A stretch of DNA of 64,000 nt from an uncultured Methylococcaceae bacterium (GTDB lineage Bacteria > Pseudomonadota > Gammaproteobacteria > Methylococcales > Methylococcaceae): NCBI GenBank assembly GCA_903857165.1, contig CAIODU010000219.1:5172-69171 (forward strand). Direction: 5' to 3'. A program made the translations under genes and the position numbers. The notes under the pieces were generated by a model. It saw only the letters and a program-made list of their open reading frames with translations, did no database searches and was not told the DNA's origin. Position 1 is the first letter of the stretch; every line of letters begins with the position of its first letter. Of the stretch, positions 10,452 through 61,143 are shown one piece after another.

Positions 10452-10565
10452 CCCGGATGGGGCTTGGGTAATCCGGGGATATCTGATCCGCAAACTTCCC
10501 ACATTCCGCCGCGCCCCCCGCGGGCCACATCCAATCCCCATCCGATCCGGCGATTTGAGAGAGTG

Positions 10566-11519
10566 ATGGCGTTATCGTCCTTGGAAATCTGCGCCGGTGC
10601 CGGTGGGCAGGCATTGGGCTTGGAGTTGGCTGGTTTTGACCACGTTCGCCTAGTTGAGATTGAACCGCCCGCCTGTGCGACACTGCGCCTGAACCGTCCA
10701 GACTGGAATGTGGTCGAAGGCGACCTGCGGCTGTTTGATGGCACTCCTTTCAGAGGCATAGACTTACTGGCCGGTGGCGTCCCCTGCCCGCCGTTTTCCA
10801 AAGCCGGCAAGCAATTGGGTTCCGACGATGACCGGGACTTGTTCCCCGAGGCGATTCGCCTGGTCGATGAATGCCGGCCCCAAGCCGTGATGCTGGAGAA
10901 TGTGCGCGGCTTGCTGGATGCCGTGTTTGGCGATTACCGGAACAAAGTCGAAAAACAACTCATCAAGCTCGGCTACAAACCGGGTTGGAAACTGCTTAAT
11001 GCTTGCGACTACGGGGTTTCCCAACTTCGCCCGCGCGTGGTGTTTGTCGGCATTCGCAAAGACTTGGTCGACAAGTTTGAATGGCCGGAACCGCTCAAAA
11101 TACCGCCTCCCACCGTGGGCGAGCTGCTCTACGACCTGATGAAAACCAATGGTTGGCGGGGTGCCGAACGTTGGCGCGAACAAGCCAATATGATCGCCCC
11201 CACGCTGGTCGGCGGGTCGAAGAAACATGGCGGGCCAGATCTTGGGCCCACCCGCTCACGGCAAGCTTGGGCAGCCTTGGGTGTTGACGGCCTCGGCGTA
11301 TGGGATGATGCCCCGCCGCGTGATTTCGTCGGCATGCCGCGGCTGACGACCCGCATGACGGCCCGTATCCAGGGTTTCCCTGATGATTGGGAATTCTTTG
11401 GCAAAAAAACCCCGGTTTACCGCCAAATCGGCAATGCCTTCCCCCCACCCGTCGCCGCTGCCGTGGCGAGGAACATATTCGCCGCCCTGAGTGTCAGGCG
11501 CAGCTTCAAGGTGGCCTAA
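10566..11519 (+). CDS. DNA (cytosine-5)-methyltransferase, type II R-M
   Basis: C5-MTase motifs in order: I LEICAGAGGQALG, IV GVPCPPFS, VI ENVRGL, VIII QLRPRVVFVG, X GNAFPPPV. The track ORF starts at 10464, but the conserved N-terminus begins at the ATG at 10566. Confidence 0.9.
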   Translation: MALSSLEICAGAGGQALGLELAGFDHVRLVEIEPPACATLRLNRPDWNVVEGDLRLFDGTPFRGIDLLAGGVPCPPFSKAGKQLGSDDDRDLFPEAIRLVDECRPQAVMLENVRGLLDAVFGDYRNKVEKQLIKLGYKPGWKLLNACDYGVSQLRPRVVFVGIRKDLVDKFEWPEPLKIPPPTVGELLYDLMKTNGWRGAERWREQANMIAPTLVGGSKKHGGPDLGPTRSRQAWAALGVDGLGVWDDAPPRDFVGMPRLTTRMTARIQGFPDDWEFFGKKTPVYRQIGNAFPPPVAAAVARNIFAALSVRRSFKVA

Positions 11520-12382
11520 TGACGGCATCGACCGAATTTGCCTTGGCCCGCAAGGCATTTCACAAGCAATTGTTGGAAACCGTCCTGACACTCAGCGCCG
11601 CCGGGGTCGCCAGCAACGCCGACAAAGACAACCGGGCCAGTGTCGCGATAGCGGCAGGCATTGCCCGCCTGCTGGAAGCGGAAACCCAAGCCGAGCGCCT
11701 GGCCGGGCAAACCTCGGGCAACCGCTTTGAGGATGCCTGTGCGGGCTTCGTCCGTGGCACATTCAGCAAGCTCACCCACTTGCGACCCGGTTTGTGGGAT
11801 GTCCATCAGGTTACCGGGCGCAACCGCCTGGAAATTGCCAAATACGAGCAATTCGCCCATCTTGTCGCCTTGGACGAGGCCGCAAGGGCAAACCCGGCCT
11901 TGGCCGCAGCGCTAGGCAGCGATTACACCATCACGCCTGATGTGGTCGTCGTCCGCCACAGGGAACCGGACGATGCCATCAACGCAAATGCGCCGCTGGT
12001 GGATGGCAGCATTGCCCGTCATGCCAGCTTGCGCGAAGCCAGCGGCGGCGGGCCGCTGCTCCATGCCAGCATTTCCTGCAAATGGACTATCCGCAGTGAC
12101 CGCGCCCAGAACGCCCGATCCGAAGCCTTGAACTTGATCCGCAACCGCAAGGGGCATCTCCCTCATATCATGGTGGTGACAGCGGAACCGACACCCTCCC
12201 GCCTCGCCTCGATTGCCTTGGGCACCGGCGACATAGATTGCGTCTACCATTTTGCCCTGTACGAGTTGCAAGAATCCCTGCAACACTTGAACATGGACGA
12301 TGCCGCCGACATGCTGGCAGTGATGGTGGACGGCAAAAGGCTCAAAGACATATCCGATTTGCCGCTGGATTTGGCGGTTTGA
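11519..12382 (+). CDS. type II restriction endonuclease, NgoMIV family
   Basis: ATG at 11519 overlaps the MTase stop (TAATG). Long stretches match my memory of R.NgoMIV: PGQTSGN.FE, GRNRLEIAKYEQFAHL, AAALGSDYTITPDVVV, LLHASISCKWTIRSDRAQNARSEALNLIRNRKGHLPHIMVVTAEPTPSRLASIALGTGDIDCVYHFALYEL, KRLKDISDLPLDLAV. Confidence 0.8.
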   Translation: MTASTEFALARKAFHKQLLETVLTLSAAGVASNADKDNRASVAIAAGIARLLEAETQAERLAGQTSGNRFEDACAGFVRGTFSKLTHLRPGLWDVHQVTGRNRLEIAKYEQFAHLVALDEAARANPALAAALGSDYTITPDVVVVRHREPDDAINANAPLVDGSIARHASLREASGGGPLLHASISCKWTIRSDRAQNARSEALNLIRNRKGHLPHIMVVTAEPTPSRLASIALGTGDIDCVYHFALYELQESLQHLNMDDAADMLAVMVDGKRLKDISDLPLDLAV

Positions 12383-13940: not shown

Positions 13941-13977
13941 CAAGACCGACTCGGTTTTAAAAACCGAGTCGGTCTTG
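13941..13977 (+). terminator. perfect 17-bp stem hairpin downstream of lpd
   Basis: CAAGACCGACTCGGTTT-TAA-AAACCGAGTCGGTCTTG begins 15 nt after the lpd stop. Only a weak T-tract follows. Confidence 0.45.
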
Positions 13978-13998
13978 ATATCCTCCAAGGAAACCGTC

Positions 13999-14217
13999 AT
14001 GTTAAGAGAAATCATCCGTCCAACACAAAATCGTATCGTTTTGGAATTGCCGGACGAATATGTCAATCAAGACATCGAAGTTTTGGCGTTTCCTGTGTAT
14101 GAAGGGAAATCTATCACCCACCCGGCTGAGAACCAATACCCGTTGCGTGGGAAACCCTTGAGTTACCAACAACCTTTTGATGGCGTGGCCGTGGAAGATT
14201 GGGAGGTATTGCCTTGA
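13999..14217 (+). CDS. putative antitoxin partnered with the PIN toxin
   Basis: 72 aa from the ATG at 13999, with AAGGA 7 nt upstream. The track start at 13975 lies inside the lpd hairpin. The stop overlaps the toxin start (TTGA). No antitoxin family recognised. Confidence 0.55.
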   Translation: MLREIIRPTQNRIVLELPDEYVNQDIEVLAFPVYEGKSITHPAENQYPLRGKPLSYQQPFDGVAVEDWEVLP

Positions 14218-14609
14218 TAGTTCTGGACACCCACACATGGATTTGGTGGGTGCATGGCGATTCGCAATTACCTCAAACAGATGCCGATTTCATCAAGCGG
14301 CATGAATCGGATGCCATTGGCGTGAGTGCCATCTCCTGTTGGGAACTGGCAAAACTATATCAATATCAACGGATAAACCTACCCTGTGAGCTTTCCGAAT
14401 GGCTTGACTTGGCACTGAACTACCCCGGCCTTAGGCTGTTGCCTTTGACTCCTGCGATTGCGATGGAATCTACCCTCCTACCCGGTATCTTTCACCGTGA
14501 CCCCGCCGATCAAATCATTGTAGCAACGGCAAGAATCCATGACTGCCCCTTGGTGACACAGGATGCCAAGATACTGGCTTATCCTCATGTAAAGAAACCA
14601 GCTTCGTAG
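14214..14609 (+). CDS. vapC: PIN-domain ribonuclease toxin (VapC family)
   Basis: IVLDTHTWIWW..., SAISCWELA, DPADQIIVATARIHDCPLVTQD give the PIN acidic residues. The likely start is TTG at 14214, preceded by GGGAGG. Confidence 0.8.
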   Translation: MIVLDTHTWIWWVHGDSQLPQTDADFIKRHESDAIGVSAISCWELAKLYQYQRINLPCELSEWLDLALNYPGLRLLPLTPAIAMESTLLPGIFHRDPADQIIVATARIHDCPLVTQDAKILAYPHVKKPAS

Positions 14610-14643
14610 GTCGGGTTTGGCGCACACTGGGAAATTTATGCGC

Positions 14644-14739
14644 GGCGGGGATTGCAACCCCGCCGATAACGTTTCGTGCCAGCCCCAAAGCCAGAGGCAA
14701 GGCACAAAACGTTACGGACGGGATTACAAATCCCGTCCG
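14644..14739. repeat. three consecutive stem-loops downstream of vapC
   Basis: The three hairpins are GGCGGGGattgcaaCCCCGCC (14644-14664), TAACGTTTCGTGCC...GGCACAAAACGTTA (14667-14714) and CGGACGGGAttacaaaTCCCGTCCG (14715-14739). Confidence 0.5.
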
Positions 14740-14818
14740 GCTCCAGAACTGTTGGAGCAGGAAAACAGAAGGTCGGAATAATTTGGGTTCCGTTCCCTTT
14801 TCTATCGCATGGGCAAGC

Positions 14819-15040
14819 CTTCAGATGGCTTATGAGAGGCAAGCCATAACCTAAGATTGGCTGCATAAGGCTATGGAGAGGATTCATCAAGCAAACGAAA
14901 TCCTTCACAAGCCCAATGAGAAGCTTAATAAGTTAAATGAAAGGGTTTTCAAGCCAAACGATAGGGATCATCATTCATGTGAGAACCTTCACAAGGCCAT
15001 AGAAAGTGTTTATATGGCAAACGAGAGGCTTCACAAGCAG
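14819..15040 (+). repeat. degenerate tandem array of about 10.5 units of 21 nt
   Basis: Example units: CTTCAGATGGCTTATGAGAGG, CTGCATAAGGCTATGGAGAGG, CTTCACAAGCCCAATGAGAAG, CTTCACAAGGCCATAGAAAGT, GTTTATATGGCAAACGAGAGG. One frame reads as heptads (LHKxNEx) but is broken by a TAA at 14852-14854. Confidence 0.75.
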
Positions 15041-15107
15041 TAGGTCGGCATCCCCATGCCGACAACAGACTTGTTTATTCTTTGGCGGCAAAGGGTTGCC
15101 GCCCTAC
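15040..15107. repeat. REP doublet (REPIN) of the GTAGG-headed family
   Basis: GTAGGTCGGCATCCCCATGCCGAC, a 20-nt spacer, then GGCGGCAAAGGGTTGCCGCCCTAC. These are two inverted hairpins with GTAGG/CCTAC outer ends. Confidence 0.8.
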
Positions 15108-15139
15108 TACTAAACCTTTTGTGCGCCGTAACCCGATAG

Positions 15140-18124
15140 CTAAACAACAGGGGCAGAACACAACACCACACGGAAGCCGAGGTTGCAGTTGCGGTCGCCG
15201 GGTCGATACCCGAAGCGGACGGCACAACGGGCGCCGTCTTGAAGGCTGCGCCAAGAACCGCCCCGCACGACCCGGTCCGCTTCGCCTTCCATGCCCTTCC
15301 GTTCCGGCTGGTCATATTCATTCAAACACCATTCCCAGACATTGCCCGCCATATCCAGTGCGCCAAAGGGTGATCGGCCTTGCGGATATAGGCCGACCGC
15401 CGAAGTTTGCTTCAAATAGTGCGGCCCGGCATAGTCATAAGTTTCGTTGATGTTGGCATAGCCTAATTGGAACTGCCCCCAAGGAAACTCAAGCTTCTCA
15501 GTCCCTCGCGCCGCCTTCTCCCATTCCTGTTCGGTGGGCAGTCGGACCTCGCAACCTAAACCATATGAAAGCCAGCGACAAAAAGCCACCGCATCAAACC
15601 AACGCACTGTCTCACGCGGATGATTCGAGTAATCCCATGTTGGTTCTTCGGGCTGATCAAACCTTCTCGCCAATCCCTCCCACCACTGAGGGTTGCTGTA
15701 GCCTTCAGCATCGTCGATGAAGGCTTGAAACTGGCAATGGGTCACCGGATAACGGGCGATATGGAAGCCAGGTAGCGTCAGCATTTCCCCGTCTTGAAAG
15801 ATGAACGGCCCGGCGGGCACTTCCACCCAGTCAATATCGGGAATAGGTCGGCGAAGCTTGGAATCGTAACGCAAGGCGACACCGGGGCGATTGTCTAGTG
15901 GTACACCATCCAAAGTCAGCATAGCCAAAGCGCGACCGAAAGCGGCTCTGGCTTCGGGTTCCGGGTCACGCTCAAGATCGGTCAGTATCCAATCCTGCCG
16001 TAATTGCCCCAATGTTTCATTGGGTGTCAGTGCGCCACTATTGAGTATGCATTGCACGGTAACTTCGGGCTGTGCTTGTTTCAACCAGTCGATGACCGGC
16101 GTACAATTGGCGGCATAAAACCCGGCCAGTAGCACGGCGGATTCTTCCCAGCTTGTGCGTTCCCAAGCATTCGGCCAGCGTCTTTCCGCTGGTAATTCGC
16201 CGCGTTCTAAACGTGAACGCAGAACTCTTGCGGTGAAATACTCTTGCAGTAATTGGTGGGTGAAGCGCACCTCGCGCTCGCCCACGTCCAGCAGGCTGGC
16301 GGCGGAGGCACGATATAACAGGCTGTCTTCCACCCATTCGGCAGCGTCCGCCCGTGACAACACGGTGAAGGCTTCGGTGTTGTCGTACTTGGACTTTCGC
16401 CGGGATTGCAAGGCCCACGCCAGATTTTCCAATGCCGCCAACAGAGCCTCGCCTTCTGTTGTGGTGCGCCATTCCTCTGTGTCTTCTGCTAGATGTTCGC
16501 GTAGCAGCAGCACCTGTACGAAACCGTCGAACAACGAGGCCCGGTTGGCGGGCAATTCGCCTGAACCGATATACACTTGGGTCAACATGTACAGCAAATA
16601 GGGATTGCCGGCCAACCACATCAGGCTGCGCGGGTCATGCACCGCCTTGCGCCAAATCTGGTCTTGTCTACCGCTGGTATTATCATAAATATTCGGATCT
16701 GATTTTGGCACGTCCTGTGCCGACCAGAACAACGCCCAATCTGCCCCGGCTTTCTGCCAAACCCGCCACACCTCACGCACTGGGTCGCCGCCGGCCAGCC
16801 GCCAGAACAAATTCTCGCCGAGTTCCCTGCCCCTTTCCTGAATATCATGTTGAGCGTAGGGCGGCAATCCTTTGCCGCCATCAACTTCCGAGTTACATTC
16901 GTCGGCATTGGGATGCCGACCTACCAAACTGTTGTTTTGCGGCCCATTCACCCGGATTCCGCCAGAGGCTCCATCCGGGCTACTTTGCTCTATCGTCGCA
17001 CTCAGGTAAGCAGTGACAAAATCGAGGATACGCGGCGGGTCCAAGGGTCGGATGGTGACGGTGTCCAGCCCTAAATCCAATGCGCCGGTGTAGTCCAATT
17101 CGCGGCAACTCACCAATGCCGGCAAGTCTTTATTATTTTCCAAGAACGATTTGGCCAAGTCCGCTTTCGCCGCTCGATCAGTGAAGGGGACTTCGTTCAG
17201 CCCGTCCAGCAGCAACACGGTTCGCCGGGTTTTAAGCAGCGGCTCCAGATAATCGCCCAGTTCTCCTAATTCGCGCTCGACAAAGGCCTGGAGAGGCTCA
17301 TCAGACGTCCATTTGCCAAGCCGGATCAGCAGCGGCAACGGGGCCGACGGGTCGGCTAGCGCATGGTCTGCGGCGTCCCGCGCCAGCTTCCATAACGTAG
17401 TGGTTTTCCCCGCCCCCGGCTCGCCCAATAGCGCGGCACGGCGCACCTCGCCGAAGACCACCATAATATCGTCATAACTACGCGGCTGTTTTGGCGGCTC
17501 GTCGGCGTGGGCGGTGATCCGGCACAAATGGCGGAATTCCGGGCGCATGACCACAGAAGGCAAAGGGGCCGACGCTTGGCTTTTGGCACTCACCTTGGCG
17601 ACCCCGGCCATGGGTGTGTACAACTCGGTATGCACCAGTTCGCCCAACTGCAAACGGCGAAGATAGGCCAGTTCGGCTTGCCTTTGCTTGCTTTCGGTGG
17701 GTGTCGGGGTTATTACGGGTTTGGGCAACGAAGCCAACAAGCGGGTCAAGCCAGTGTCATAGTCAGGTTCAATCGGGATGGCTTGGCGGTCGGCCATGTA
17801 CCAAGGCAGTAGGCAGCCCTTGGTCAGCAGGGGAATGATGGGTTTGCCGAGTTGTTTCGCATGAAGGAATTCCAGCCGTACCCATTCGCTGCGGTTGGCG
17901 GCTTCCGTCACCAAGGTGACAACGGCATAAGCCCGTTCCAAGCCCTCGGCGATGGCTTTAATCCAAACCTCTCCGCCGGGGATGTCAGTGGTATCCAACC
18001 AACACGGATGGCCGGCCTGTTCCAAATCGTCCAGCAGCCGGTCCGCTATGGCGCGGTCGGTGCGGGAATAACTCAGAAATACCACCGGGCCAGTGGTGTT
18101 GGTTGGTCGGGCAGCAATTTTCAT
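15140..18124 (-). CDS. STAND NTPase: N-terminal TIR domain, NACHT P-loop NTPase, helical region, C-terminal FGE/SUMF1-fold (formylglycine-generating-enzyme-like) domain
   Basis: 994 aa. TIR: VVFLSYSRTDRAIADRLLDDLEQAGHPCWLD...NRSEWVRLEF, with the putative catalytic Glu at aa 85. Walker A is GEPGAGKT (aa 234-241) and Walker B is TVLLLDGLNE (aa 302-311). The FGE fold spans aa ~763-992 (RYPVTHCQFQAF, RLPTEQEWEKAARG, GALDMAGNVWEW, RVVRGGSW, LGFRVV). Confidence 0.9.
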   Translation of the reverse strand: MKIAARPTNTTGPVVFLSYSRTDRAIADRLLDDLEQAGHPCWLDTTDIPGGEVWIKAIAEGLERAYAVVTLVTEAANRSEWVRLEFLHAKQLGKPIIPLLTKGCLLPWYMADRQAIPIEPDYDTGLTRLLASLPKPVITPTPTESKQRQAELAYLRRLQLGELVHTELYTPMAGVAKVSAKSQASAPLPSVVMRPEFRHLCRITAHADEPPKQPRSYDDIMVVFGEVRRAALLGEPGAGKTTTLWKLARDAADHALADPSAPLPLLIRLGKWTSDEPLQAFVERELGELGDYLEPLLKTRRTVLLLDGLNEVPFTDRAAKADLAKSFLENNKDLPALVSCRELDYTGALDLGLDTVTIRPLDPPRILDFVTAYLSATIEQSSPDGASGGIRVNGPQNNSLVGRHPNADECNSEVDGGKGLPPYAQHDIQERGRELGENLFWRLAGGDPVREVWRVWQKAGADWALFWSAQDVPKSDPNIYDNTSGRQDQIWRKAVHDPRSLMWLAGNPYLLYMLTQVYIGSGELPANRASLFDGFVQVLLLREHLAEDTEEWRTTTEGEALLAALENLAWALQSRRKSKYDNTEAFTVLSRADAAEWVEDSLLYRASAASLLDVGEREVRFTHQLLQEYFTARVLRSRLERGELPAERRWPNAWERTSWEESAVLLAGFYAANCTPVIDWLKQAQPEVTVQCILNSGALTPNETLGQLRQDWILTDLERDPEPEARAAFGRALAMLTLDGVPLDNRPGVALRYDSKLRRPIPDIDWVEVPAGPFIFQDGEMLTLPGFHIARYPVTHCQFQAFIDDAEGYSNPQWWEGLARRFDQPEEPTWDYSNHPRETVRWFDAVAFCRWLSYGLGCEVRLPTEQEWEKAARGTEKLEFPWGQFQLGYANINETYDYAGPHYLKQTSAVGLYPQGRSPFGALDMAGNVWEWCLNEYDQPERKGMEGEADRVVRGGSWRSLQDGARCAVRFGYRPGDRNCNLGFRVVLCSAPVV
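16856..16924. repeat. REP doublet (REPIN) inserted in frame inside the TIR-NACHT coding sequence
   Basis: GTAGGGCGGCAATCCTTTGCCGCC, 21 nt, then GTCGGCATTGGGATGCCGACCTAC. The element is 69 nt, which equals codons 401-423 (VGRHPNADECNSEVDGGKGLPPY). It has the same architecture as the intergenic copy at 15040-15107. Confidence 0.85.
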
Positions 18125-18137
18125 GATGAGGCAAAAC

Positions 18138-18507
18138 GTTAAACTTTAGTCCGTCATTCCTGCCGGGAAGCAGGACAAATCGGCAGGATAGCCGATTTGC
18201 ACGGCTCCACCGCCCGAAGGGTGAGGGACAAGGATGTCCCGAATGCATCCTGTCAAAAGGGCGTGAAACTAGAGTTAGCCACTCACCTTTAATCACCGAT
18301 GTTACGCACTCGTCGGCAAAGGGTTGCCGACCTACGGCGGTTGTGGCCATTCCAGCCACCTAGACCGTAGGGCGGCAACCCTTTGCCGCCAACGGTTTAG
18401 GTTTGGCTGCGCGTAACATCAGTTAACCATGTATTCATGCATGGACAAGTTACCATCCATGGCACTGGATTCCGGCAGTCCATGCCGGAATGACGGCTTA
18501 ACTTTAC
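18138..18507. repeat. ~370-bp repeat-dense block bounded by ~21-bp imperfect inverted repeats
   Basis: GTTAAACTTTAGTCCGTCATTCC (18138-18160) pairs with GGAATGACGGCTTAACTTTAC (18487-18507). The interior contains several hairpins and the element at 18298-18420. Confidence 0.5.
18298..18420. mobile_element. MITE-like 123-bp element with 10-bp terminal inverted repeats
   Basis: GATGTTACGC...GCGTAACATC, followed by AGTTAA. The interior carries two GTAGG-family REPs (18312-18335 and 18367-18390). Confidence 0.5.
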
Positions 18508-20036: not shown

Positions 20037-21167
20037 TCAGGAATCACCTTCGTCGTCCGGTCCGAGGGTGAATTCATCCAGCCAGTTCTCCAGCGTTTCC
20101 GTGTCGAGTCGGTGGGTGATGGATTGACCTTCAGGCTTTTCGATGGTGATGACGTTTTCCGGCGTGTCGATGAATTCCTCCACAAGCAAATCAGAGTGAG
20201 TTGATACGATTAACTGAGTCCGTTGCGAGGCATCGCGCAACAATTCCGCCAGGGCAGGCATCATTTCGGGGTGTAGGCCTAGTTCCGGTTCCTCAATGCA
20301 AATCAAAGGGGGCGGAACGGGATGGCAAAGTATTGCCAACAGGCAAAGGAAACGCAGTGTGCCATCCGACATGATTGCGGTTGGAATCAGGAAGCCCGCT
20401 TCCTTGATGGATATTTGCGCAACACCCTCGACAAAATTGACATTGATATCCTCCGTATTGGGAAGAAGAGTACGGAGATGCCCCAAAATTTTCTTTTTGG
20501 TTTCGGGCGCGTTGCAGAGCAAAGACAGGATTGCGCCGAGGTTTTCAAAGTTTTCGGAGAGGAAATCTTCCGTCAAGCCTTGATTGTCGGGGATGCGCAG
20601 CGGGCAAAGTGCCCCAAATGTCCAATCCCGGTAAATGCGAATTTTGCCGAATGCTTCCCCTAACCAGGAGATTTCCGGATATGCCTCCGTATTTTTGCGC
20701 TGTGCCAATATGGATAGCTCGGTGTTGATGTCTTCCCGTTTTAACTGCCGCCGGCCACTTTTCACATTGATGACCGGCGCGCCTTTTTGATAGGCAAAGT
20801 AGAAATAGGATTTTCCGTGGCCCACATCGGGATGCTCGTTTTCTATGCGTTCGTCGGTCAGTTGGAAATTTTGGTTGCTGGCAGTGAATTCCAGCCAATA
20901 GCGCAGGTTTCTGGAACCGACGGGGCAATTAATCACCGCTTCCAACCGGACGATAGGGTGATTTTTATGTCCTTGCCATAGCCAGCCCAGTGGCAGGGGG
21001 GCGGGTTGGCTCTTAGTTGCCGACTGCAACAGTCTGACGCACTCGATAAGATTGGACTTTCCACTACCGTTGGGACCGACAAGGATATTGAGTGGTGCCA
21101 GTTCGATAGGCGGTTGATCCTCGCCAAAAGAGAGGATGTTTTTAGGATTGATACTGGTAATAAGCAT
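20037..21167 (-). CDS. ABC/SMC-like AAA ATPase (AAA_21/AAA_15-type) with no adjacent partner gene
   Basis: Walker A VGPNGSGKSN, signature-like MSDGTLRFLCLLAIL, Walker B LICIEEPELGLHP, and STHS. Confidence 0.8.
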   Translation of the reverse strand: MLITSINPKNILSFGEDQPPIELAPLNILVGPNGSGKSNLIECVRLLQSATKSQPAPLPLGWLWQGHKNHPIVRLEAVINCPVGSRNLRYWLEFTASNQNFQLTDERIENEHPDVGHGKSYFYFAYQKGAPVINVKSGRRQLKREDINTELSILAQRKNTEAYPEISWLGEAFGKIRIYRDWTFGALCPLRIPDNQGLTEDFLSENFENLGAILSLLCNAPETKKKILGHLRTLLPNTEDINVNFVEGVAQISIKEAGFLIPTAIMSDGTLRFLCLLAILCHPVPPPLICIEEPELGLHPEMMPALAELLRDASQRTQLIVSTHSDLLVEEFIDTPENVITIEKPEGQSITHRLDTETLENWLDEFTLGPDDEGDS

Positions 21168-36846: not shown

Positions 36847-38514
36847 CTATTGTACTCCCTGCATTCCCTTAGGCAATTTTAAGATAAAGACAGGGTCTTT
36901 TTCTTTTTTTACTCCGGATTTAGGTGGATTCTTGGCTTTTTGCTGGTCTATCCAACTTAAAGGTTGGCTGGGTTCGGCCTTGGCGGGTTTGTTCGGATCA
37001 GGCTTGTTGATTTTTGCCGGTTCGGCAGTGGCCGGTTTGGCCGTATCAAGCTTGACCGGTTTTATCGGTTCGGCAGTGGCCGGTTTGGCCGTATCAAGCT
37101 TGGCCGGTTTTGCCGGTTCGGCTTTATCCTCTTTCTTCGGCACTGGGGCAGCGACTGGTTTTGGCGGGACATAATCCTTAGCGGGTTTGACAATTTCACT
37201 TTTTGTGTTGAAATCCGCCAACAGGGCGTTCTGGGCTTTGCGGGCGGTTTGCTCTTGAGTGAATGGGCCACCAACGACTTGGTAACGCTGGTTTCTGGCG
37301 ACGGTGTAGGCCGGGATTCTCGGCCCTAAATGGTTCATTTGCGCCGCCAGTTTCTTGGCCCTGTATTCGTCCTCGGATTCCATGGTGCGAATGAACCAGC
37401 CGGACTTGCCCCGTTCTGCCTTTTCAGGCTGGCCGAACAATTGGCCGGGGCGTTCCAATGGGGCGGCGGCGGCAACGATCTCTTTAAGGCTAGGGGTGTT
37501 TTCAAAAATCGGTGTAGGGATGCCACGATTTTGTTTGAGTACCCCCTCGACTTTAGGCCAGTCTATTTTGTGCTGCGATTGCTTGGCGATGCGTTGGATC
37601 TCATCCATGATCTTCTTTTTTTCCACTGCGGCATCCACTTCCTCGTAAGGCTCATGGGCTTCCAGGTAGGGCTCGCCATTCAGCCAACCCAATAAATAGG
37701 GCTGGTTGACGATTAGGACAGGTGTTTTGGCTGGAATGTCCCGAAAGGCAAGCGCTATGTCTTCGGGATACAGTCGTATGCAGCCGTTGCTGGCGCGTAG
37801 GCCAATGCTAAAGGGTTTGTTCGTGCCGTGGATGAGATAGCTTGCCTTGCTCAAATACAAGGCAAAATCGCCCAATGGGTTGTCTGGTCCGGGTGGGACT
37901 ATCGGAGGGAGCGGGTCGCCTTGTTCCGCATGGGTTTTGCGGATGGAGTCCGGCACATACCAAGTCGGATGTTGCATCTTGCGGGCCACCGCCATCATCC
38001 CCAAGGGGGTTGAACGGCCCTCCCGACCTATGCCGATGGGCCAAGTCATCAATGCGGGTTGCTTGCCGGGTTTGAAATAAAACAGCCGCATGGTGGCCAC
38101 ATTGATGACCACACCCTCGCGCTTGGCATTCGGCAAGGTGAATTGCATCGGCAAAATGGCACGGGTGCCGGGTTGCGGAACCCAGATGTCCACGCCGGGA
38201 TTGGCGTCGACGATGTGCTGGTAACCCAAGCCAAAATGGCGTGCAATATCCAGCAGAGTGTCGCCTTCACGCAGGGGTACGACCGCCAAACGACCGACTA
38301 GGCTGTCCTTCCCATTTAGTTGGAAATTATGGTCTTGGATAGCCTCAGCCGTTGCCGGGACGGCCACCGGTTGTTCGGGTTCGCCCCAAAAATCAACCAG
38401 TGGCGGCGGATTGTAAGGGTTGACCCTGTTCATTTCGGCACAGCCGGAAAGCAAACCGACGAGCAGTAACAAACAGTGCAATCTGCCCCATTCAGTAAAA
38501 AAGATTGGGATCAT
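36847..38514 (-). CDS. L,D-transpeptidase with LysM, YkuD and SPOR-like domains and a Pro/Ala/Lys repeat tail
   Basis: LysM: REGDTLLDIARHFGLGYQHIVDANPG. YkuD: YLIHGTNKPFSIGLRASNGCIRL. SPOR-like: WFIRTMESEDEYRAKKLAAQM...YQVVGGPF. Confidence 0.85.
   Translation of the reverse strand: MIPIFFTEWGRLHCLLLLVGLLSGCAEMNRVNPYNPPPLVDFWGEPEQPVAVPATAEAIQDHNFQLNGKDSLVGRLAVVPLREGDTLLDIARHFGLGYQHIVDANPGVDIWVPQPGTRAILPMQFTLPNAKREGVVINVATMRLFYFKPGKQPALMTWPIGIGREGRSTPLGMMAVARKMQHPTWYVPDSIRKTHAEQGDPLPPIVPPGPDNPLGDFALYLSKASYLIHGTNKPFSIGLRASNGCIRLYPEDIALAFRDIPAKTPVLIVNQPYLLGWLNGEPYLEAHEPYEEVDAAVEKKKIMDEIQRIAKQSQHKIDWPKVEGVLKQNRGIPTPIFENTPSLKEIVAAAAPLERPGQLFGQPEKAERGKSGWFIRTMESEDEYRAKKLAAQMNHLGPRIPAYTVARNQRYQVVGGPFTQEQTARKAQNALLADFNTKSEIVKPAKDYVPPKPVAAPVPKKEDKAEPAKPAKLDTAKPATAEPIKPVKLDTAKPATAEPAKINKPDPNKPAKAEPSQPLSWIDQQKAKNPPKSGVKKEKDPVFILKLPKGMQGVQ
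36971..37122. repeat. 48-nt tandem repeat (3 units, the first degenerate) inside the L,D-transpeptidase 3' region
   Basis: GGTTCGGCAGTGGCCGGTTTGGCCGTATCAAGCTTG(A/G)CCGGTTTT(A/G)(T/C)C occurs at 37019 and at 37067. It encodes KP(A/V)KLDTAKPATAEP(I/A) repeats. Confidence 0.7.
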
Positions 38515-40432: not shown

Positions 40433-40482
40433 CAGGGCGGCAACCCTTTGCCGCCATCCGTTGGCTTGGGTTTGCCAACCTA
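40433..40482. repeat. GTAGG-family REP doublet (degenerate head)
   Basis: AGGGCGGCAACCCTTTGCCGCC, 5 nt, then GTTGGCTTGGGTTTGCCAACCTAC. Confidence 0.65.
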
Positions 40483-49760: not shown

Positions 49761-49790
49761 TTAACTAATGTTACTCAACCGCTTGTAGCG

Positions 49791-49843
49791 GTAGGGAGGC
49801 AACCCTTTGCCGCCACCGCGTCGGCATGGGGAGGCCAGCCTAC
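49791..49843. repeat. GTAGG-family REP doublet abutting lpxD
   Basis: GTAGGGAGGCAACCCTTTGCCGCC, 5 nt, then GTCGGCATGGGGAGGCCAGCCTAC. The CTA of the terminal CCTAC is the complement of the lpxD TAG stop codon (49840-49842). Confidence 0.7.
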
Positions 49844-50904
49844 TTAGTCCCGGTCAATTCCGCAACCTTTTTCTCCAGTTTTTTCAGCCGCGACCACATT
49901 TCCGCGAGCTTGGGCATGATCGCGATGTTTTTCAGGTATTGTTGCAGAGGCTGGGTCGGACCCCCTGCATACATGCCGGGTTCTTTGATGCTGCGGTTGA
50001 TGCCCGCCCGGTGCAGTAAAACCGAGTCGCTGGCGACGGTGACATGGTCGAGTACGCCAGTCTGGCCCGAGGCGATCACCCGCTTCCCAAACTTACTGGA
50101 ACCGGAAATGCCGGTGTGGGCGCAGAGGATGCAATCCTCGCCGATATCGACATTATGGCCGATGTGGCACAACGCATCGACGATGACACCGGAACGGATG
50201 ATGGTGGCACCGTAAGTGGCGCGGTCAATGGTGGTGTTGGCCCCGATGACGACCCGATCCTCGATGATTACCTTTCCGGTATGCGGTATGCGATAATTGC
50301 GGCGTTTTTCGTCTTGGGCAAAACCGAATCCTTCCGACCCAATGACGCAACCGGCCTTGAGCATGACGTGGGCACCGATTTCACAGCCTTGGCTGACCAC
50401 GCAGCCGGGATGCACGACAGTTCCTTGGCCGATGCGGGCATTGTTTTCGACCACGGCATTGGCCATCAACACGACCCCATCCCCCAATTCAACATTTGCC
50501 CCAACGACCACGCCGGGGCCGATGACCGCGTCATCAGGAATTTGAACGCTGGGGTGGATCACAGACGAAGGGTGAATGCGTGGCCATTCCGTGTGGTAAT
50601 AGTCGCGGTCGTCATAAGCCTGCTTGACCAAGGCAGTAGCCAACCTGATGTTCTCTGCCAACAGGATGGCGAGGCCCGCCTCTCCTTGCAGTTCAGCGGC
50701 AATGGCTTTGTTGGTAATGACGGCGGCGGGTTTGCGTTCTAGCACCAAGGGCAAAAATTTGGCGTTATCGACAAAAACCAAATCGCCCCCGGCACAGTCA
50801 TCAATGGGGGCGAAGCGGCTGATGGCATTATCCGGGCCTCGGTGGTCAAAAATGAGCCCCTGCCCCTTGAAGCGTTGTAAAATTTCCGATGCTTTCAAAT
50901 TCAT
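49840..50904 (-). CDS. lpxD: UDP-3-O-(3-hydroxyacyl)glucosamine N-acyltransferase
   Basis: N-terminal uridine-binding region followed by a long run of hexapeptide repeats (IGPGVVVGANVELGDGVVLMANAVV...). Confidence 0.92.
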   Translation of the reverse strand: MNLKASEILQRFKGQGLIFDHRGPDNAISRFAPIDDCAGGDLVFVDNAKFLPLVLERKPAAVITNKAIAAELQGEAGLAILLAENIRLATALVKQAYDDRDYYHTEWPRIHPSSVIHPSVQIPDDAVIGPGVVVGANVELGDGVVLMANAVVENNARIGQGTVVHPGCVVSQGCEIGAHVMLKAGCVIGSEGFGFAQDEKRRNYRIPHTGKVIIEDRVVIGANTTIDRATYGATIIRSGVIVDALCHIGHNVDIGEDCILCAHTGISGSSKFGKRVIASGQTGVLDHVTVASDSVLLHRAGINRSIKEPGMYAGGPTQPLQQYLKNIAIMPKLAEMWSRLKKLEKKVAELTGTK

Positions 50905-53216: not shown

Positions 53217-53264
53217 AAGAAAAAGAGGGTTTCACGCAACGGCGCAACGACGCAACGTGAAAAG
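53217..53264 (+). repeat. direct repeat A bracketing the NACHT-FGE gene
   Basis: AAGAAAAAGAGGGTTTCACGCAACGGCGCAACGACGCAACGTGAAAAG, built from 8-nt CGCAACGN sub-repeats. Confidence 0.7.
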
Positions 53265-53301: not shown

Positions 53302-56300
53302 CTATAATGCCCTGGCAAGCCGGAAACCCTGGTTGTAGAAGGCCCCATCGGTCGTGATCCTGTTACGGTAGGCCGAACGGAGGTACTGCGGGACGTAGTA
53401 CCACGAACCGCCCCGAACCACCCGGCGACTGTCCCCGCCGTCCTCCCAGGCGGAACCGTCGCCGGGGGCACCCTGGTAATCATCATGCCAGCGGTCTTGC
53501 ACCCATTCCCAAGCATTGCCCGCCATATCAGATAGCCCAAACCCATTGGGCCGTTTTTCCCCGACCGGATGGGTCGTGCCTTGGGAATTATTAGAAAACC
53601 AAGCATAGTTATCCGCGTCCGCGACCGATTCCCCCCAGAAAAACTGGCTGGTGCTGCCTGCCCGCACGGCGTATTCCCATTCCGCTTCTGTTGGCAAGCG
53701 ACCGCCCGCCCAGTGTGCAAACCGGCAGGCGGCGTTCCAGTCGATGCCGACGACCGGTTGACGGGCTTGATTAAAGCGCCGGTCGGCCCAGTATTTTGGT
53801 TGTTTTTCTTTTGGGTGGGCTTGCAGGAAAAGCGCATACTCTTCATTGGTGACCGGGTAGCGGCCTAAGTGGAAAGGGCGGATTTCAACCGCGTGCGCAG
53901 GGCGTTCGCTGTCATTCCCCTCGCCTTCGGCTGAACCCATCATGAAGCGCCCGCCGGGGATCAGGATCAGTTCCACTCCGCCGTTGGAGATGCGCGGGAC
54001 AGCGACATCTTTCCAACTTTGTTCAAAGCTGAGTAAATTTTCGAAAAAACGGTGGTTTATCGTTTCGGCCAACGGCTCCATCGTATCCGGTGCCAGCCGA
54101 TCCAAAACTCGTATTGCCGCCGCTTGATTCGCAAACAGAACAGTATAATTGCCGGGTTCTTGCCGGAGAAATTCCACAAACGGGATTGGCGAAAATTCAG
54201 CGGCTTCTTCTAGAATTAAATCCAGAAACGCGCTGTCGTCGGCAAAGCGGGCTTGCTTGAGTGCTTCGGTCATGAACGGCGCGAACAAAGACGGGTTGCC
54301 TTGTGCCAGCAGCAACAAGATGACCTCGTTCCACCAACTTTCGCCATAATGCGCGGCCAGTTCGGACAATGTATCGCGCTTGCCGCCATCCAGTGCTTCG
54401 GCTAAGGCTAGGCGGCGCAACTCGCAAGCGGCAAGGTATTCCTGAAAGCCTAAATGCATGAAGCCATAAACCCCATGGCTCCAACCGGTCAACAAACCGC
54501 TTTCGTCGCGGAGGGTCTGCAAGAATTGCCGGGCATCGCCGTTTCGCCATTGCGTGGCTTTTAGGGCCGGTTCCAGCACCGGGGCCAGTTCTTCGGCAGT
54601 GGCACGGGTGCGTTTGTCCTCGCCATGCAGCCATAGCGCCACAGGTTGCAAGGCGCGTCGGCCAGTTTGCGCGGGGATACTGACCAACAGGCTTCTGCCT
54701 TGCCCGATGGATTTATGTTGTCGCCAGAGTTCCAGCAATACGGCTATGCACTCGTCGTAAAGCTCGTGCCGCCCTTTGGGTAAAATGCCGCCCCGGTCAC
54801 GATGCACCAGGCAAAGATTCGCCAACAGCAAGGGGTTGCGGGTCATCTCAGCCATGCGAGTAGAGCGGGAGTCCGGTTCCCGCAGCCGTTCGACCAACTC
54901 TGCGGCTTTTTCGGTCGCCTTGATTGCGCCGGAGGGTCCGGGTGTGAGTCCAGTCTCCACCGCCTTGTACCAGTTGCGGATGAAGCTTTCCGATTGTTCT
55001 TGGGTCATGGGCCGCAGATGCAGTTCCAAAAAGCCCGCATCCATGAGGCTGTCTTCGTCATATCCGGCAAACCGGCAAGTCACCACGGCAGTGCAAGCGG
55101 GCAACGCTTGGACCGCGCTTTTGATCCATTCGGCGACTTTGGCGCGTTGCTTGGCGTCGCTGACTTCGTCCAGACCGTCGAACAATAGCAGCAAGCGGCC
55201 CCGTTCCAACAACCGCTTGCCAAAGCCTTGCGGCATATTCAGGTGAGGGCTGTCCAAGGTCTTTTCGATGAAAGCGTCCAAGCCGTGGTCCAAATCCTCC
55301 AACTCGCGCAGTGGCAGGAACACCGGCAGCAGATCGTCGGGTAGGCCCAGCCAGTCCGGGCCTTGCCGCAAACAGGCCAGCAACAGCCGCTTCAAATGGG
55401 TGGTCTTGCCCGAACCGGGGTCGCCCAGAATGACGAGGTTATGCCGCTTGCGGGCATGAGCCTCGCGGAAGGCGTCGATGAGGGCGATCTCGGCGGAGCC
55501 ATGACTGCCTAGCTTGGCCTCGGCGTCGGCGGCATCGGCAAACAGGCAAGCGCCCGTCCCGCGCAAATCGACACTGGCTTGCAGCGGGACATACAATTCT
55601 TCCAAGTCGATGGGTACTCGCAGCCTAGTTTTGAAACCGGCCAGCGGGATTTCCTTGTGTTGATTCTCCATGACTTCGCAATAGCGATTTAATTCCGGTT
55701 CCAGGCCAGCGGGTTCGGGCTTGGTTGCGGGTGCAGTGTTGCCGCCAAGCTGTTGTTTACGCCAATCATGCAAGGCTTGGTAGACCATTACATTGAGTTT
55801 GCTTTCCTCAAAGAGTCCGGGCATCTGATCTTCACGGAACTTAGCCTTGAAGTCATCAAGCTTGTCCCGTTTGGCCCCTCGCCCCTTGCCTTGATCAAAA
55901 TCTTTGTCGGGGTCCACCCGAACCGATGCAGCAATCTCAAACATCAACCTAGGCCGCCCGGCCAACTTGGCGGCGTCATATTCCAGTTCGGTGATGGAGA
56001 ATTCCAGGCCATCGGGTATCCAGCCGTAGCGATGGGCGATGATGCCCAGAAATACATCACATTCCCGCGCTTGCCGCTCGCATTCTTCTACGGTGGTGTT
56101 GGCGCTGGCGGCGAAGCGCTCCATGCCGACCGGCAGCATTTTGGCACGGATAATGGCATCTTCGACTAGCTTGCGCCGCTCCTCGTTGTCGAGAAAGGTG
56201 CTGGAAATAAAGACGGTAACGGGCAGGTTGGAAGGCGGGCTAACACCTAGCGGGGAATCTTTCGTGTTACGATGCAATGGGTTCATGACGATGGGTTGGA

Positions 56301-56367
56301 GTGCCTTAGTGCCAAAAATGAAATCGCCCAAGCAGGTGCTGGAGGGTGAATTGTAATTTAAAAACAT
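53302..56367 (-). CDS. STAND NTPase: N-terminal DUF4062-like (TIR-like fold) domain, NACHT NTPase, helical region, C-terminal FGE/SUMF1-fold domain
   Basis: DUF4062-like: VFISSTFLDNEERRKLVEDAIIRAKMLPVGMERF...CDVFLGIIAHRYGWIP. Walker A is ILGDPGSGKTT (DNA ~55399-55428) and Walker B is LLLLFDGLDEV. FGE fold: LIPGGRFMMGS, RYPVTNEEYALF, RLPTEAEWEYAVRAG, GLSDMAGNAWEW, RVVRGGSW, QGFRLA. The track ORF extends to 56619 through REP hairpins. The likely start is the ATG at 56367 or at 56286. Confidence 0.88.
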   Translation of the reverse strand: MFLNYNSPSSTCLGDFIFGTKALQPIVMNPLHRNTKDSPLGVSPPSNLPVTVFISSTFLDNEERRKLVEDAIIRAKMLPVGMERFAASANTTVEECERQARECDVFLGIIAHRYGWIPDGLEFSITELEYDAAKLAGRPRLMFEIAASVRVDPDKDFDQGKGRGAKRDKLDDFKAKFREDQMPGLFEESKLNVMVYQALHDWRKQQLGGNTAPATKPEPAGLEPELNRYCEVMENQHKEIPLAGFKTRLRVPIDLEELYVPLQASVDLRGTGACLFADAADAEAKLGSHGSAEIALIDAFREAHARKRHNLVILGDPGSGKTTHLKRLLLACLRQGPDWLGLPDDLLPVFLPLRELEDLDHGLDAFIEKTLDSPHLNMPQGFGKRLLERGRLLLLFDGLDEVSDAKQRAKVAEWIKSAVQALPACTAVVTCRFAGYDEDSLMDAGFLELHLRPMTQEQSESFIRNWYKAVETGLTPGPSGAIKATEKAAELVERLREPDSRSTRMAEMTRNPLLLANLCLVHRDRGGILPKGRHELYDECIAVLLELWRQHKSIGQGRSLLVSIPAQTGRRALQPVALWLHGEDKRTRATAEELAPVLEPALKATQWRNGDARQFLQTLRDESGLLTGWSHGVYGFMHLGFQEYLAACELRRLALAEALDGGKRDTLSELAAHYGESWWNEVILLLLAQGNPSLFAPFMTEALKQARFADDSAFLDLILEEAAEFSPIPFVEFLRQEPGNYTVLFANQAAAIRVLDRLAPDTMEPLAETINHRFFENLLSFEQSWKDVAVPRISNGGVELILIPGGRFMMGSAEGEGNDSERPAHAVEIRPFHLGRYPVTNEEYALFLQAHPKEKQPKYWADRRFNQARQPVVGIDWNAACRFAHWAGGRLPTEAEWEYAVRAGSTSQFFWGESVADADNYAWFSNNSQGTTHPVGEKRPNGFGLSDMAGNAWEWVQDRWHDDYQGAPGDGSAWEDGGDSRRVVRGGSWYYVPQYLRSAYRNRITTDGAFYNQGFRLARAL

Positions 56368-61041: not shown

Positions 61042-61143
61042 TATAATCCACAATTGACGTTATCAATAAATATTTGTTAGAGACTATTGGTGGCAAAGGG
61101 CTACCGACCAACTGGCTAGGCGAATAGCCGGACCATCACTGCC

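Follow-up and report, generated by a model that had tools for sequence, protein, structure and literature searches.

The window, that is, the whole 64-kb stretch of DNA analysed here, contains at 15140..18124 on the minus strand a complete gene that begins with an ATG start codon and encodes a single-chain STAND protein of 994 amino acids with TIR, NACHT and FGE/CLec domains. The exact protein is on record, with identical copies on three metagenome contigs, and its 431 homologues (E <= 1e-10) come from Proteobacteria, Chloroflexota, Acidobacteriota and Planctomycetota. An initial annotation of this DNA had recognized the open reading frame and its three domains, and the Pfam scores for TIR_2, NACHT and FGE-sulfatase, all above the gathering thresholds, bear this out. 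The TIR domain (residues 15–130; 17735..18082, minus strand) is matched by TIR_2 with an E value of 1e-22 and partially by TIR-effector models of NCBIfam and PADLOC, the PADLOC matches to the 994-aa protein being restricted to partial ones with SAVED_TIR, Aga_TIR and ThsB, with no bNACHT or Avs model matched beyond the TIR domain; a weak sequence match to Cat1, a CRISPR-associated TIR protein (9mud), was also found. Within this domain the motif SEWVRLEF holds the putative catalytic residue Glu85 (codon 17870–17872), whose conservation across 87 homologues is at least 90% and which we take to be the counterpart of Glu642 in the DWVHKE motif of SARM1. The NACHT nucleotide-binding domain (residues 229–381; 16982..17440, minus strand) carries a Walker A motif, GEPGAGKT (17402–17425, including Lys240), and a Walker B motif, LLLDGLNE (17192–17215), and residues Lys240, Asp307, Gly308, Asn310 and Glu311 are invariant in the homologue alignment (87 homologues for Lys240, Asp307 and Glu311). 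All three motifs had been quoted in the initial annotation and were found at the residues it gave. The Pfam NACHT match extends over residues 229–329 (E 4.4e-7) and its 30.3 bits barely exceed the cut-off of 26.7, because the match is truncated by an insertion described below.

The NACHT domain is followed by the helical and winged-helix arm of the module (residues 422–735; 15920..16861, minus strand), recognized from invariant columns, helices in the model and matches to NLRs. The arm includes the motif FTHQLLQEYF (His623), which is invariant among homologues, and the NCBIfam EruA NACHT model gives a partial match across residues 499–648. In the AlphaFold2 model of the whole protein (pLDDT 87.1, pTM 0.84), the NACHT region was matched by Foldseek to the animal NLRs NOD2 (4e-9), NLRC4 and NAIP5, with RPP1 also appearing. 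The model, the Foldseek matches and the invariant motif agree that the fold of a NOD module is present, consisting of a nucleotide-binding domain and then a helical/winged-helix arm with a conserved histidine.

At the C terminus lies an FGE-sulfatase/C-type-lectin-fold (FGS) domain (residues 751–990; 15155..15874, minus strand), to which the Pfam FGE-sulfatase family matches at residues 782–987 (E 3.4e-45). Its sequence matches in the PDB are to ToxD, pFGE, FGE, EgtB and TvpA, and the FGE-fold structures retrieved with the predicted model are ToxD, CalU17, TvpA and PvdO, in agreement with the fold first proposed. The domain is classed as non-catalytic. It had been claimed that neither catalytic cysteine of FGE is retained, and aligning the protein with human FGE (1y1e) by HMMER gives the same answer, Cys336 corresponding to a three-residue gap and Cys341 to Gln962; the equivalent positions fall in a block that is hypervariable among homologues. 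As read from its sequence, then, the gene is an intact bacterial NLR-like gene of immune type, encoding a predicted TIR effector, a NACHT switch and a putative non-enzymatic FGE/lectin-fold sensor.

The last ~37 residues of the protein (residues 951–987, RVVRGGSWRSLQDGARCAVRFGYRPGDRNCNLGFRVV; 15164..15274, minus strand) are hypervariable among orthologues that are otherwise 60–77% identical. To place this region, we compared 44 species-representative loci of relatives with a complete C terminus and at least 3 kb of downstream sequence. A reverse transcriptase of a diversity-generating retroelement (DGR) was detected within 10 kb in 22 of them (tblastn with a reverse transcriptase probe from one relative), a template repeat with no fewer than 80% of its mismatches at adenines in 14, and a second variable-region-like copy in 26; in every relative where a DGR was detected, the reverse transcriptase lay no more than ~2.5 kb downstream of its target. 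One homologue (P0007), an EAD8-TIR-NACHT-FGE protein 59% identical to the 994-aa protein, is encoded in a cassette where a template repeat and two variable regions occur together with a reverse transcriptase that bears the motifs IGNLTSQ and YVDD; the mismatches of the two variable regions fall at template adenines in 12/12 and 17/19 cases. The peptide encoded by the templates of relatives, RGGSWNNN..NAR...RNNN.P.NRNNN.GFRV, keeps one common register, and the query varies at its Asn positions. Template repeats from 13 relatives share their register with the query region, the repeat of the relative L003 aligns at the DNA level to window positions 15158–15274, and most variable codons of the query have the form NNC, which AAC templates would be expected to yield. 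Taken together, these comparisons of sequence identify the C-terminal ~37 residues of the FGE domain as a DGR variable region, the feature for which this family is chiefly known. The initial annotation had not noticed it.

No DGR was found to accompany the gene itself. In the 64-kb window the best tblastn match to a DGR reverse transcriptase was no better than E = 2, and no template repeat was detected by blastn with a word size of 7; nor was either element found in the adjoining flanks (right side, 10 kb; left side, ~5.7 kb), so that ~80 kb of the genome was covered altogether. A pattern scan of JGI metagenomes for the variable region yielded only two orthologous contigs bearing it, with identical variable regions, and no template repeat on the contigs that matched the pattern. 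The closest species-level relatives (L017 and L002) have no DGR either. There was also no variable-region diversity between related strains, the region being identical in the window and in the loci L083 and L084; these are three assemblies, possibly from related lakes or populations. The neighbouring lpdA gene is 5–10% diverged between strains that share the identical variable region, and in L084 the upstream part of the gene itself is 12% diverged. The last 368 nucleotides of the gene are 99.7% identical compared with ~88% for the remainder. Far from being the least conserved stretch of the gene, the variable region is the most conserved one. One allele shows 100% identity between strains that have diverged in the flanking genes, and the gene is under purifying selection (dN/dS 0.157 over 571 codons). 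This copy is apparently a DGR orphan, with a variable region fixed in this lineage.

An alternative explanation is that DGR activity on the variable region continues, with a reverse transcriptase and template repeat acting in trans from a remote site in the genome. The DGR serving STAND-FGS genes can indeed sit elsewhere in the genome (Kaur 2021, PMC8195603), the register and NNC codon pattern of the variable region are intact, and our view of this genome spans ~80 kb. We nevertheless regard continued diversification as unlikely, given the single variable-region sequence shared by three assemblies, one of them from a strain whose gene is otherwise 12% diverged, the lack of a template repeat in the JGI metagenomes that hold the orthologous locus, the proximity of the reverse transcriptase in all relatives with a detected DGR, and the lack of a DGR in the closest relatives.

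The gene is bordered and interrupted by repeated elements. A REP doublet lies directly past the stop codon (15040..15107, plus strand), and a self-complementary palindromic REP pair, an inverted repeat with 61087–61175, lies upstream of the gene (18304..18392). The same element as that at 15040–15107 occurs in frame within the coding sequence (16856..16924, minus strand), where it encodes VGRHPNADECNSEVDGGKGLPPY and is predicted to fold as two hairpins (z = -4.8). It is contained in a lineage-specific insert of ~44 amino acids (16850–16981) that is absent from most orthologues. The insert falls in a predicted disordered loop (pLDDT <50 for residues 393–416 in the AlphaFold2 model), and its site is a linker in which other orthologues carry different in-frame inserts. 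In a sister strain, the orthologue consists of three fragments (652, 207 and 129 amino acids), with an insertion of ~124 nucleotides at window position ~15504; its disruption by insertions indicates that the gene is dispensable in some strains. Reverse transcriptase remnants of only 60–124 amino acids in several relatives show, in addition, that such DGR cassettes do decay. It could be argued from the in-frame REP doublet, the fragmented orthologue and these remnants that the gene is a decaying relic without current function, left behind after loss of the DGR and now being colonized by REP/MITE elements. We find this improbable, since the 994-aa frame is intact, all catalytic and structural residues invariant in the family are retained, the dN/dS value is low at the figure given above, and the REP insert occupies a predicted disordered loop at a linker that tolerates other in-frame inserts in orthologues. 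Moreover, the occurrence of a wholly identical allele beside diverged flanking genes suggests recent spread rather than neglect.

The gene is solitary between the housekeeping genes lpdA and ssb. The initial annotation had placed it between a toxin–antitoxin module and repeat-rich DNA, and a PIN/antitoxin pair at 13975–14609 and the flanking REP-like repeats correspond to that description. Within 6 kb are an NgoMIV-type restriction–modification system, this PIN toxin–antitoxin pair and a HEC-01A ATPase. The proposed association with defence genes fared less well among homologues: at 23 species-level loci, the recurrent genes within 5 kb were those for another STAND-FGS protein and for the reverse transcriptase of a DGR, and no enrichment of other known defence systems was found, so that evidence for a defence island is weak and comes, for the window gene, from its own restriction–modification, PIN and HEC-01A neighbours. 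The window also contains a second STAND-FGS gene (53302..56367, minus strand), which encodes a DUF4062-NACHT-FGE protein of 1021 amino acids according to Pfam, has its exact protein on record, and possesses a variable-region-like C terminus of its own with an NNC-rich block of codons. This gene had been described as a domain-swapped paralogue of the first. The shared architectural class stands, whereas recent paralogy does not: at ~29–30% identity in the NACHT and FGE parts, the two proteins are distant members of the same class.

We consider it probable that the 994-aa protein is a germline-encoded, NLR-like sensor of one specificity with a TIR effector, derived from a DGR-diversified ancestor. 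The host is a Methylococcaceae bacterium close to Candidatus Methylumidiphilus, in which the DGR would be gone or remote and the variable region fixed, making the protein now a germline-encoded receptor with a single specificity. Our working hypothesis is that the last ~37 residues form the binding face of the C-terminal lectin-fold sensor, the tip of which may bind a foreign, probably phage-derived, molecule or a guarded host molecule. Binding would release autoinhibition of the NACHT ATPase, allowing nucleotide exchange and presumably oligomerization. Activation of TIR domains through induced proximity is established for RPP1 and ROQ1. The TIR domains clustered in this way would form active NAD+-cleaving sites around Glu85, NAD+ depletion or a nucleotide signal would follow, and the infected cell would stop growing, a putatively anti-phage outcome. 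More tentatively, we suggest as one possibility that a sensor specificity first produced through DGR hypermutation has been hard-wired, in that the DGR was lost and one variable-region sequence was kept under purifying selection and now spreads between Methylumidiphilus strains through recombination of the 3' end of the gene, which encodes the sensor. The 99.7% identity of the last 368 nucleotides and the allele identical between strains with diverged neighbouring genes would fit such a spread.

Alternatively, the gene may encode a non-immune signalling STAND protein that responds to a ligand from the cell itself or from its environment, such as a glycan or a product of the cell envelope, with the TIR domain serving regulation or social cell death. 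The neighbourhoods of homologues devoid of other known defence systems would accord with such a role, as would the diverse ligands bound by FGE-fold domains (ToxD, CalU17, PorK) and a literature that ties such systems to bacteria that aggregate or are multicellular, and to 'conflict' broadly. We doubt this explanation, however, because the combination of TIR and NACHT domains with a conserved catalytic Glu is the signature of immune effectors across plants, animals and bacteria (Kibby 2022), the local context includes a restriction–modification system and HEC-01A, and the sensor is hypervaried by DGRs in relatives, implying an arms race against a ligand that changes. Far less credible still is an enzyme of the SUMF1/EgtB/PvdO family, as the NCBI names of homologues and the FGE-sulfatase Pfam match might suggest, since this identity is effectively refuted by the missing cysteine pair with its hypervariable surroundings, by scores of 47–67 bits against cut-offs of 360–500 for the NCBIfam SenA, EgtB, OvoA and PvdO equivalog models, matched only in the C-terminal FGE-fold part of the profiles, and by the absence of a DinB-like N-terminal iron domain from the 994-aa protein. 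The solved structures most closely related to that protein include those of pFGE, which is non-catalytic, and of TvpA, a DGR target. For members of this family, the NCBI name 'SUMF1/EgtB/PvdO family nonheme iron enzyme' misleads.

The germline-encoded receptor that we favour has a wider bearing. STAND-FGS proteins are widespread, and it has been proposed that they are the bacterial counterpart of antigen receptors that hypermutate. The present locus documents the end state of the family without a DGR, in which the gene is intact and evolves under purifying selection and several strains have one frozen variable region in common. With a single specificity and no retroelement needed, a DGR-less copy is the simplest to test experimentally. 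If the specificity is indeed hard-wired, a bacterial adaptive-like repertoire would have collapsed into an innate, germline-encoded NLR, and a fixed single sensor that needs no DGR would offer a practical entry point to the first FGS-sensor ligand.

The TIR-NACHT-FGE architecture is already known, and the locus adds no new one. STAND-FGS proteins with TIR or EAD8 N-termini have been reported repeatedly (Kaur 2020, PMC7159879; Kaur 2021, PMC8195603; Kibby 2022, 10.1101/2022.07.19.500537; Doré 2024, PMC10907252; a 2026 Nature survey), those with TIR N-termini in the eLife paper (Kaur 2021), and FGS has been placed among the sensors of 'antigen receptor type', of which two are listed (Kibby 2022). 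The receptor logic proposed here was predicted in earlier work (Kaur 2021, section 7; Kibby 2022, supplementary discussion; Doré 2024). The initial annotation held that the architecture had been described only in computational surveys; the literature searched agrees (Kaur 2021; Kibby 2022; Doré 2024), and no experimental phenotype, ligand or phage test was found there for any STAND-FGS member. CLec domains on STAND proteins are stated to have no experimental characterisation (Doré 2024, PNAS).

The closest comparison is with the STAND NTPase-FGS conflict systems (PMC8195603, PMC7159879), which share the same syntax of an N-terminal TIR, EAD8 or other effector or adaptor, a NACHT-clade STAND module and a C-terminal FGS domain, and which occur, as in the window, in at least two copies per genome with different N-termini. 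These systems often have a DGR nearby or elsewhere in the genome, whereas the window gene has none in ~80 kb and differs further in its fixed variable region, its lack of EAD8 and its in-frame REP insert. The DGR clade 5D loci, such as DGR 3 and DGR 6 of Thiohalocapsa PB-PSB1 (PMC10907252), have two STAND-CLec targets, and the same layout is seen in relatives of the query (L003, L007, L016, L018, L019, L029, L050 and others), where convergent STAND-CLec targets flank a template repeat and reverse transcriptase, with adenine-specific mismatches and in some cases TIR N-termini. In contrast, the window gene is solitary, without reverse transcriptase, template repeat or adjoining partner target, and its organism belongs to a planktonic methanotroph lineage and is not a known multicellular bacterium. 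The anti-phage bNACHT proteins (10.1101/2022.07.19.500537) resemble the 994-aa protein in having a NACHT core, an N-terminal effector and a C-terminal sensor; no mention of FGS in the text of that paper concerns an experiment. TvpA of Treponema denticola (PDB 2Y3C; sequence E 1e-8 to 1e-10, Foldseek E 3.5e-9) likewise has an FGE-type lectin fold with a variable region at the extreme C terminus, but it is a stand-alone variable protein, whereas here the fold shares one polypeptide with a TIR effector and an ATPase switch. Finally, plant TIR-NLRs (RPP1, PDB 7DFV) and animal NLRs (NOD2, NLRC4, NAIP5) share the tripartite logic of effector, NOD and sensor, although the sensor here is a single lectin-fold domain and not a set of LRRs, and the likeness does not imply common descent of the whole architecture.

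The STAND-FGS gene at 15140–18124 (minus strand), FGS denoting an FGE-sulfatase/C-type-lectin-fold sensor, is a single ORF with an ATG start encoding 994 aa, and Pfam supports all three expected domains in its product: TIR_2 (residues 15–130, E = 1e-22), NACHT (residues 229–329, E = 4.4e-7, slightly over the gathering score) and FGE-sulfatase (residues 782–987, E = 3.4e-45). The initial annotation, made from the sequence alone, had described one TIR-NACHT-FGE polypeptide of this length; that description is borne out, the TIR and NACHT motifs it quoted are found where it placed them, and the profile search and structure prediction it had proposed as checks both agree with it. In an alignment of 87 family sequences, Lys240 (Walker A), Asp307 and Glu311 (Walker B) and the winged-helix motif FTHQLLQEYF are invariant, and Glu85 of the TIR domain is at least 90 % conserved. 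With this alignment as input, AlphaFold2 gave a confident model (mean pLDDT 87.1, pTM 0.84), the C-terminal part of which was matched by Foldseek to the FGE-fold proteins ToxD (5e-13), CalU17, TvpA (3.5e-9; the variable protein of a diversity-generating retroelement, DGR) and PvdO, and the central part to NOD2 (4e-9), NLRC4 and NAIP5. Given the ORF, the Pfam domains, the motif conservation and these structural matches, the TIR-NACHT-FGE observation is confirmed well beyond chance. An exact copy of the protein is called on three public metagenome contigs, fragments at least 90 % identical to it carry the names of Candidatus Methylumidiphilus MAGs, and the nearest species-level locus, L017 from an uncultured Methylococcaceae bacterium, is 71 % identical.

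A sensor of FGE fold lacking catalysis had also been proposed, and this too holds: in the HMMER alignment with human FGE (1y1e), the catalytic Cys336 coincides with a gap of three residues and Gln962 lies opposite Cys341, such that neither position holds a Cys. Equivalog models for sulfoxide synthase, selenoxide synthase and PvdO match the FGE-fold part only, at 47–67 bits against cut-offs of 360–500. On both counts we rejected a SUMF1/EgtB/PvdO enzyme reading, and for the same reasons the NCBI name borne by the homologues, ‘SUMF1/EgtB/PvdO family nonheme iron enzyme’, is misleading. Judged by these alignments, the FGE fold of the query is not that of an enzyme.

The initial annotation had overlooked a DGR variable region in the gene (15164–15274, aa 951–987). 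When the query is compared with orthologues 53–77 % identical to it overall, a hypervariable C-terminal block, RGGSW-xxx-x-xx-ARCA-x-R-xxxx-P-xx-R-xxx-LGFR, stands between invariant flanks, a pattern that we read as the signature of a DGR variable region in an FGE-type C-type-lectin fold. Indeed, the homologue P0007, an EAD8-TIR-NACHT-FGE protein 59 % identical to the query, is encoded in a DGR cassette comprising a reverse transcriptase (RT) in which IGNLTSQ and YVDD, both DGR motifs, occur, a template repeat of 139 nt and two variable regions, each ending one of a convergent pair of NACHT-FGE genes; 12/12 and 17/19 of the template-to-variable mismatches fall at template adenines. A scan of homologues at one genome per species gave 79 loci, from Accumulibacter, other Gammaproteobacteria, Chloroflexota, Acidobacteriota, Planctomycetota and Leucothrix pacifica, 44 of which were evaluable (complete C-terminus and at least 3 kb downstream). 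A DGR RT lies within 10 kb in 22 of the 44 (six of these RTs being remnants of 60–124 aa only), a template repeat in which 80 % or more of the mismatches are adenine-specific is present in 14, among them Leucothrix (22/22), L016 (16/16) and L050 (18/18), and a second variable-region-like copy is found in 26. The template repeats of the relatives all encode one register, RGGSW-NNN-xx-N-AR-xxx-R-NNN-x-P-x-N-R-NNN-x-GFRV; the query sequence, RGGSW-RSL-QD-G-ARCA-V-R-FGY-R-P-G-D-R-NCN-L-GFRV, differs precisely where the templates encode Asn, and its variable codons are mostly NNC, as AAC templates would predict. Beside the target genes of L004, L006, L008, L024, L030 and L037, RT matches of 60–124 aa are all that is left, and the RT of L003 (13382–14468) is split by a frameshift; the DGR cassettes of this family therefore seem to decay repeatedly.

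The query copy itself is apparently an orphan. No template repeat was found in the 64-kb window, either by a repeat search (seed 11) or by blastn at word size 7 with the C-terminal regions of both FGE genes, these searches recovering only the conserved motif common to the two; matches to the L003 template repeat were likewise confined to the two variable regions, and tblastn with a composite DGR RT gave nothing in the window better than E = 2. Public contigs extend the view by a further 10 kb on the right and some 5.7 kb on the left; the genes there are of housekeeping type, sugar and glycogen genes among them, and neither RT nor template repeat is present. The nearest relatives, L017 and L002, are similarly devoid of both. 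A pattern built from the constant codons that border the first variable block retrieved from JGI metagenome contigs no template repeat and only two orthologous contigs, L083 and L084; it requires exact constant bases, such that a slightly divergent template repeat would escape it. The variable region is identical in the window and in both of these contigs, despite differences of 5–10 % in the adjacent lpdA. Identity between L084 and the window is 99.7 % over the final 368 nt of the gene (15140–15507) and about 88 % over the remainder, while a comparison of 14600–16300 with L083 reveals a mosaic in which the 3' part of the STAND gene and the downstream spacer are 100 % identical and lpdA and the neighbouring toxin–antitoxin genes 88–99 % identical per 100-nt block. 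The mosaic identity with both contigs suggests that the sensor-encoding end has recently recombined or spread among strains. On these comparisons the variable region is, from strain to strain, the best-conserved stretch of the gene, the reverse of what active diversification would give, and a dN/dS of 0.157 over 571 codons between the window gene and L084 indicates that the gene is under selective constraint. Of the four tests that define an active DGR target, three (template repeat and RT, over the window and its flanks, and population diversity) were negative for the query copy; we therefore file it as a DGR-derived orphan with an apparently fixed variable region, and not as an active target.

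Mobile repeats have also left their mark. The Pfam NACHT match is truncated because a lineage-specific insert of ~44 aa (16850–16981, minus strand) directly follows the nucleotide-binding domain. Its core is an in-frame REP doublet, GTAGGTCGGCATCCCAATGCCGAC ... GGCGGCAAAGGATTGCCGCC (16856–16924, minus strand), with two GC-rich hairpins encoding 23 residues; it is the same element as that at 15040–15107, in the intergenic region just 3' of the stop codon, and as other copies in the window, where GTAG-headed REP hairpins are scattered (15040–15107, 18304–18392, 40434–40462, 49788–49844 and 61087–61175). The insert falls in the sole long low-confidence loop of the AlphaFold2 model, residues 393–416, predicted to be disordered. 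Other orthologues carry different in-frame inserts in the same linker, that of L002 being a 44-nt palindrome, and in the sister strain represented by L084 the gene is broken into three ORFs, with an insertion of ~124 nt in the FGE domain at a junction near 15504. The locus is thus pressed by mobile repeats, with the window copy still intact. A 189-aa ORF at 52527–53096 (minus strand) has by eye the look of an IS200/RAYT-type Y1 transposase (FYHFFNRAN...HFHFLLRV); PADLOC returned no match for it. In the flank described initially as repeat-dense, inspection and self-blastn revealed that the spacer separating the STAND gene from the PIN toxin gene contains an array of some nine degenerate units of 21 nt (14860–15037), which Tandem Repeats Finder did not report because the copies are too divergent. 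The array overlaps a 56-aa ORF (14873–15043) of heptad-like character (ERIHQAN/EILHKPN...). Its conservation stops at the near-identical contigs L001, L083 and L084; L002 and L017 lack it. Elsewhere, within a 555-aa ORF (36847–38514, minus strand), 36962–37122 holds three tandem 65-nt units, 48-nt-spaced and 68–75 % identical.

A second gene of this kind, at 53302–56367, encodes DUF4062, NACHT and FGE domains (Pfam). Its description as a domain-swapped paralogue was overstated, and we rejected a recent origin of that sort, as the two genes are only 29–30 % identical. Two 45-nt direct repeats (53218–53262 and 56404–56448; 89 % identical), each a hairpin of the form TTTCACG...CGTGAAA, bracket this gene exactly, one just beyond the stop codon and one just ahead of the start; they may mark the limits of a cassette or represent a further REP family.

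Several genes of defence type lie within 6 kb of the query, with the housekeeping genes lpdA and ssb interspersed: a C5 cytosine methylase and NgoMIV-type type II restriction endonuclease upstream of lpdA (10464–12382, plus strand; PADLOC REase_II, E = 2.6e-125), the PIN toxin and antitoxin (13975–14609) that make up the toxin–antitoxin module noted initially beside the gene, and a 376-aa HEC-01A-type ATPase with AAA_21/AAA_15 matches (20037–21167, minus strand), a PADLOC candidate defence component (E = 4e-133). Around the homologues, a single pseudo-alignment of 136 ORFs drawn from 23 loci was scanned; the ORFs had been called crudely, as the longest of 130 aa or more, and small genes were therefore missed. 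In raw, uncontrolled counts, the Pfam families recurring within 5 kb were FGE-sulfatase (11), RVT_1 (10), NACHT (7), AAA_16 (6), TIR_2 (5), nSTAND1 (4) and EAD8 (4), which represent the DGR and partner STAND-FGS genes. Among the same ORFs PADLOC found nothing recurrent but RT, as cross-matches to many RT models. The defence-island argument is for these reasons weak, although L003 adjoins a gene with a Shedu SduA_C domain match and a SIR2-TPR gene, and the case for immunity rests on TIR-NACHT logic and the arms-race signature of the sensor.

The observations establish the identity of the domains, the conservation of their motifs, the selective constraint on the gene and the descent of the sensor tip from a DGR target, whereas ligand identity, oligomerisation, NADase activity and phage phenotype are inferred from what is established for NLRs and TIR effectors. 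On this basis, our working hypothesis for the most likely mechanism is as follows. At rest, the NACHT module would be closed and nucleotide-bound, with the lectin-fold domain packed on it. Binding of a ligand to the variable-region face of the lectin fold would allow nucleotide exchange and oligomerisation, gathering the TIR domains into active NADase sites around Glu85, and NAD+ depletion or production of a nucleotide signal would then stop the infected cell. Near the query gene no effector is evident that could act as partner to a TIR-made signal, and direct NAD+ depletion is therefore slightly favoured.

Kaur (2020; PMC7159879) introduced FGS domains, coupled to DGRs, as components of NTPase conflict systems, and STAND NTPase-FGS proteins have since been described with NACHT-clade NTPases, N-termini including TIR and EAD8, a DGR that may be close by or elsewhere, and several copies in one genome that differ in their N-termini (Kaur et al., 2021; PMC8195603, section 7), a description that the second gene at 53302–56367 fits. 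FGS is listed among the sensors of bacterial NACHT proteins as an ‘antigen receptor type’ (Kibby et al., 2022; 10.1101/2022.07.19.500537), and a 2026 Nature survey displays AlphaFold3 models of FGE-sulfatase sensors without further discussion (PMC13581612). In DGR clade 5D, STAND-CLec targets occur in twos, some of them with TIR, and the CLec domains of STAND proteins are described as experimentally uncharacterized (Doré et al., 2024; PMC10907252); the literature we searched yielded no experimental work on STAND-FGS proteins. Overall, the initial interpretation is supported in part, for its architecture and its non-catalytic sensor, with an anti-phage role as the putative function. A frozen, DGR-free copy under purifying selection offers a convenient handle on what FGS sensors recognize. 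In its architecture the query would not surprise a specialist, being a further member of a known, computationally defined STAND-FGS kind.
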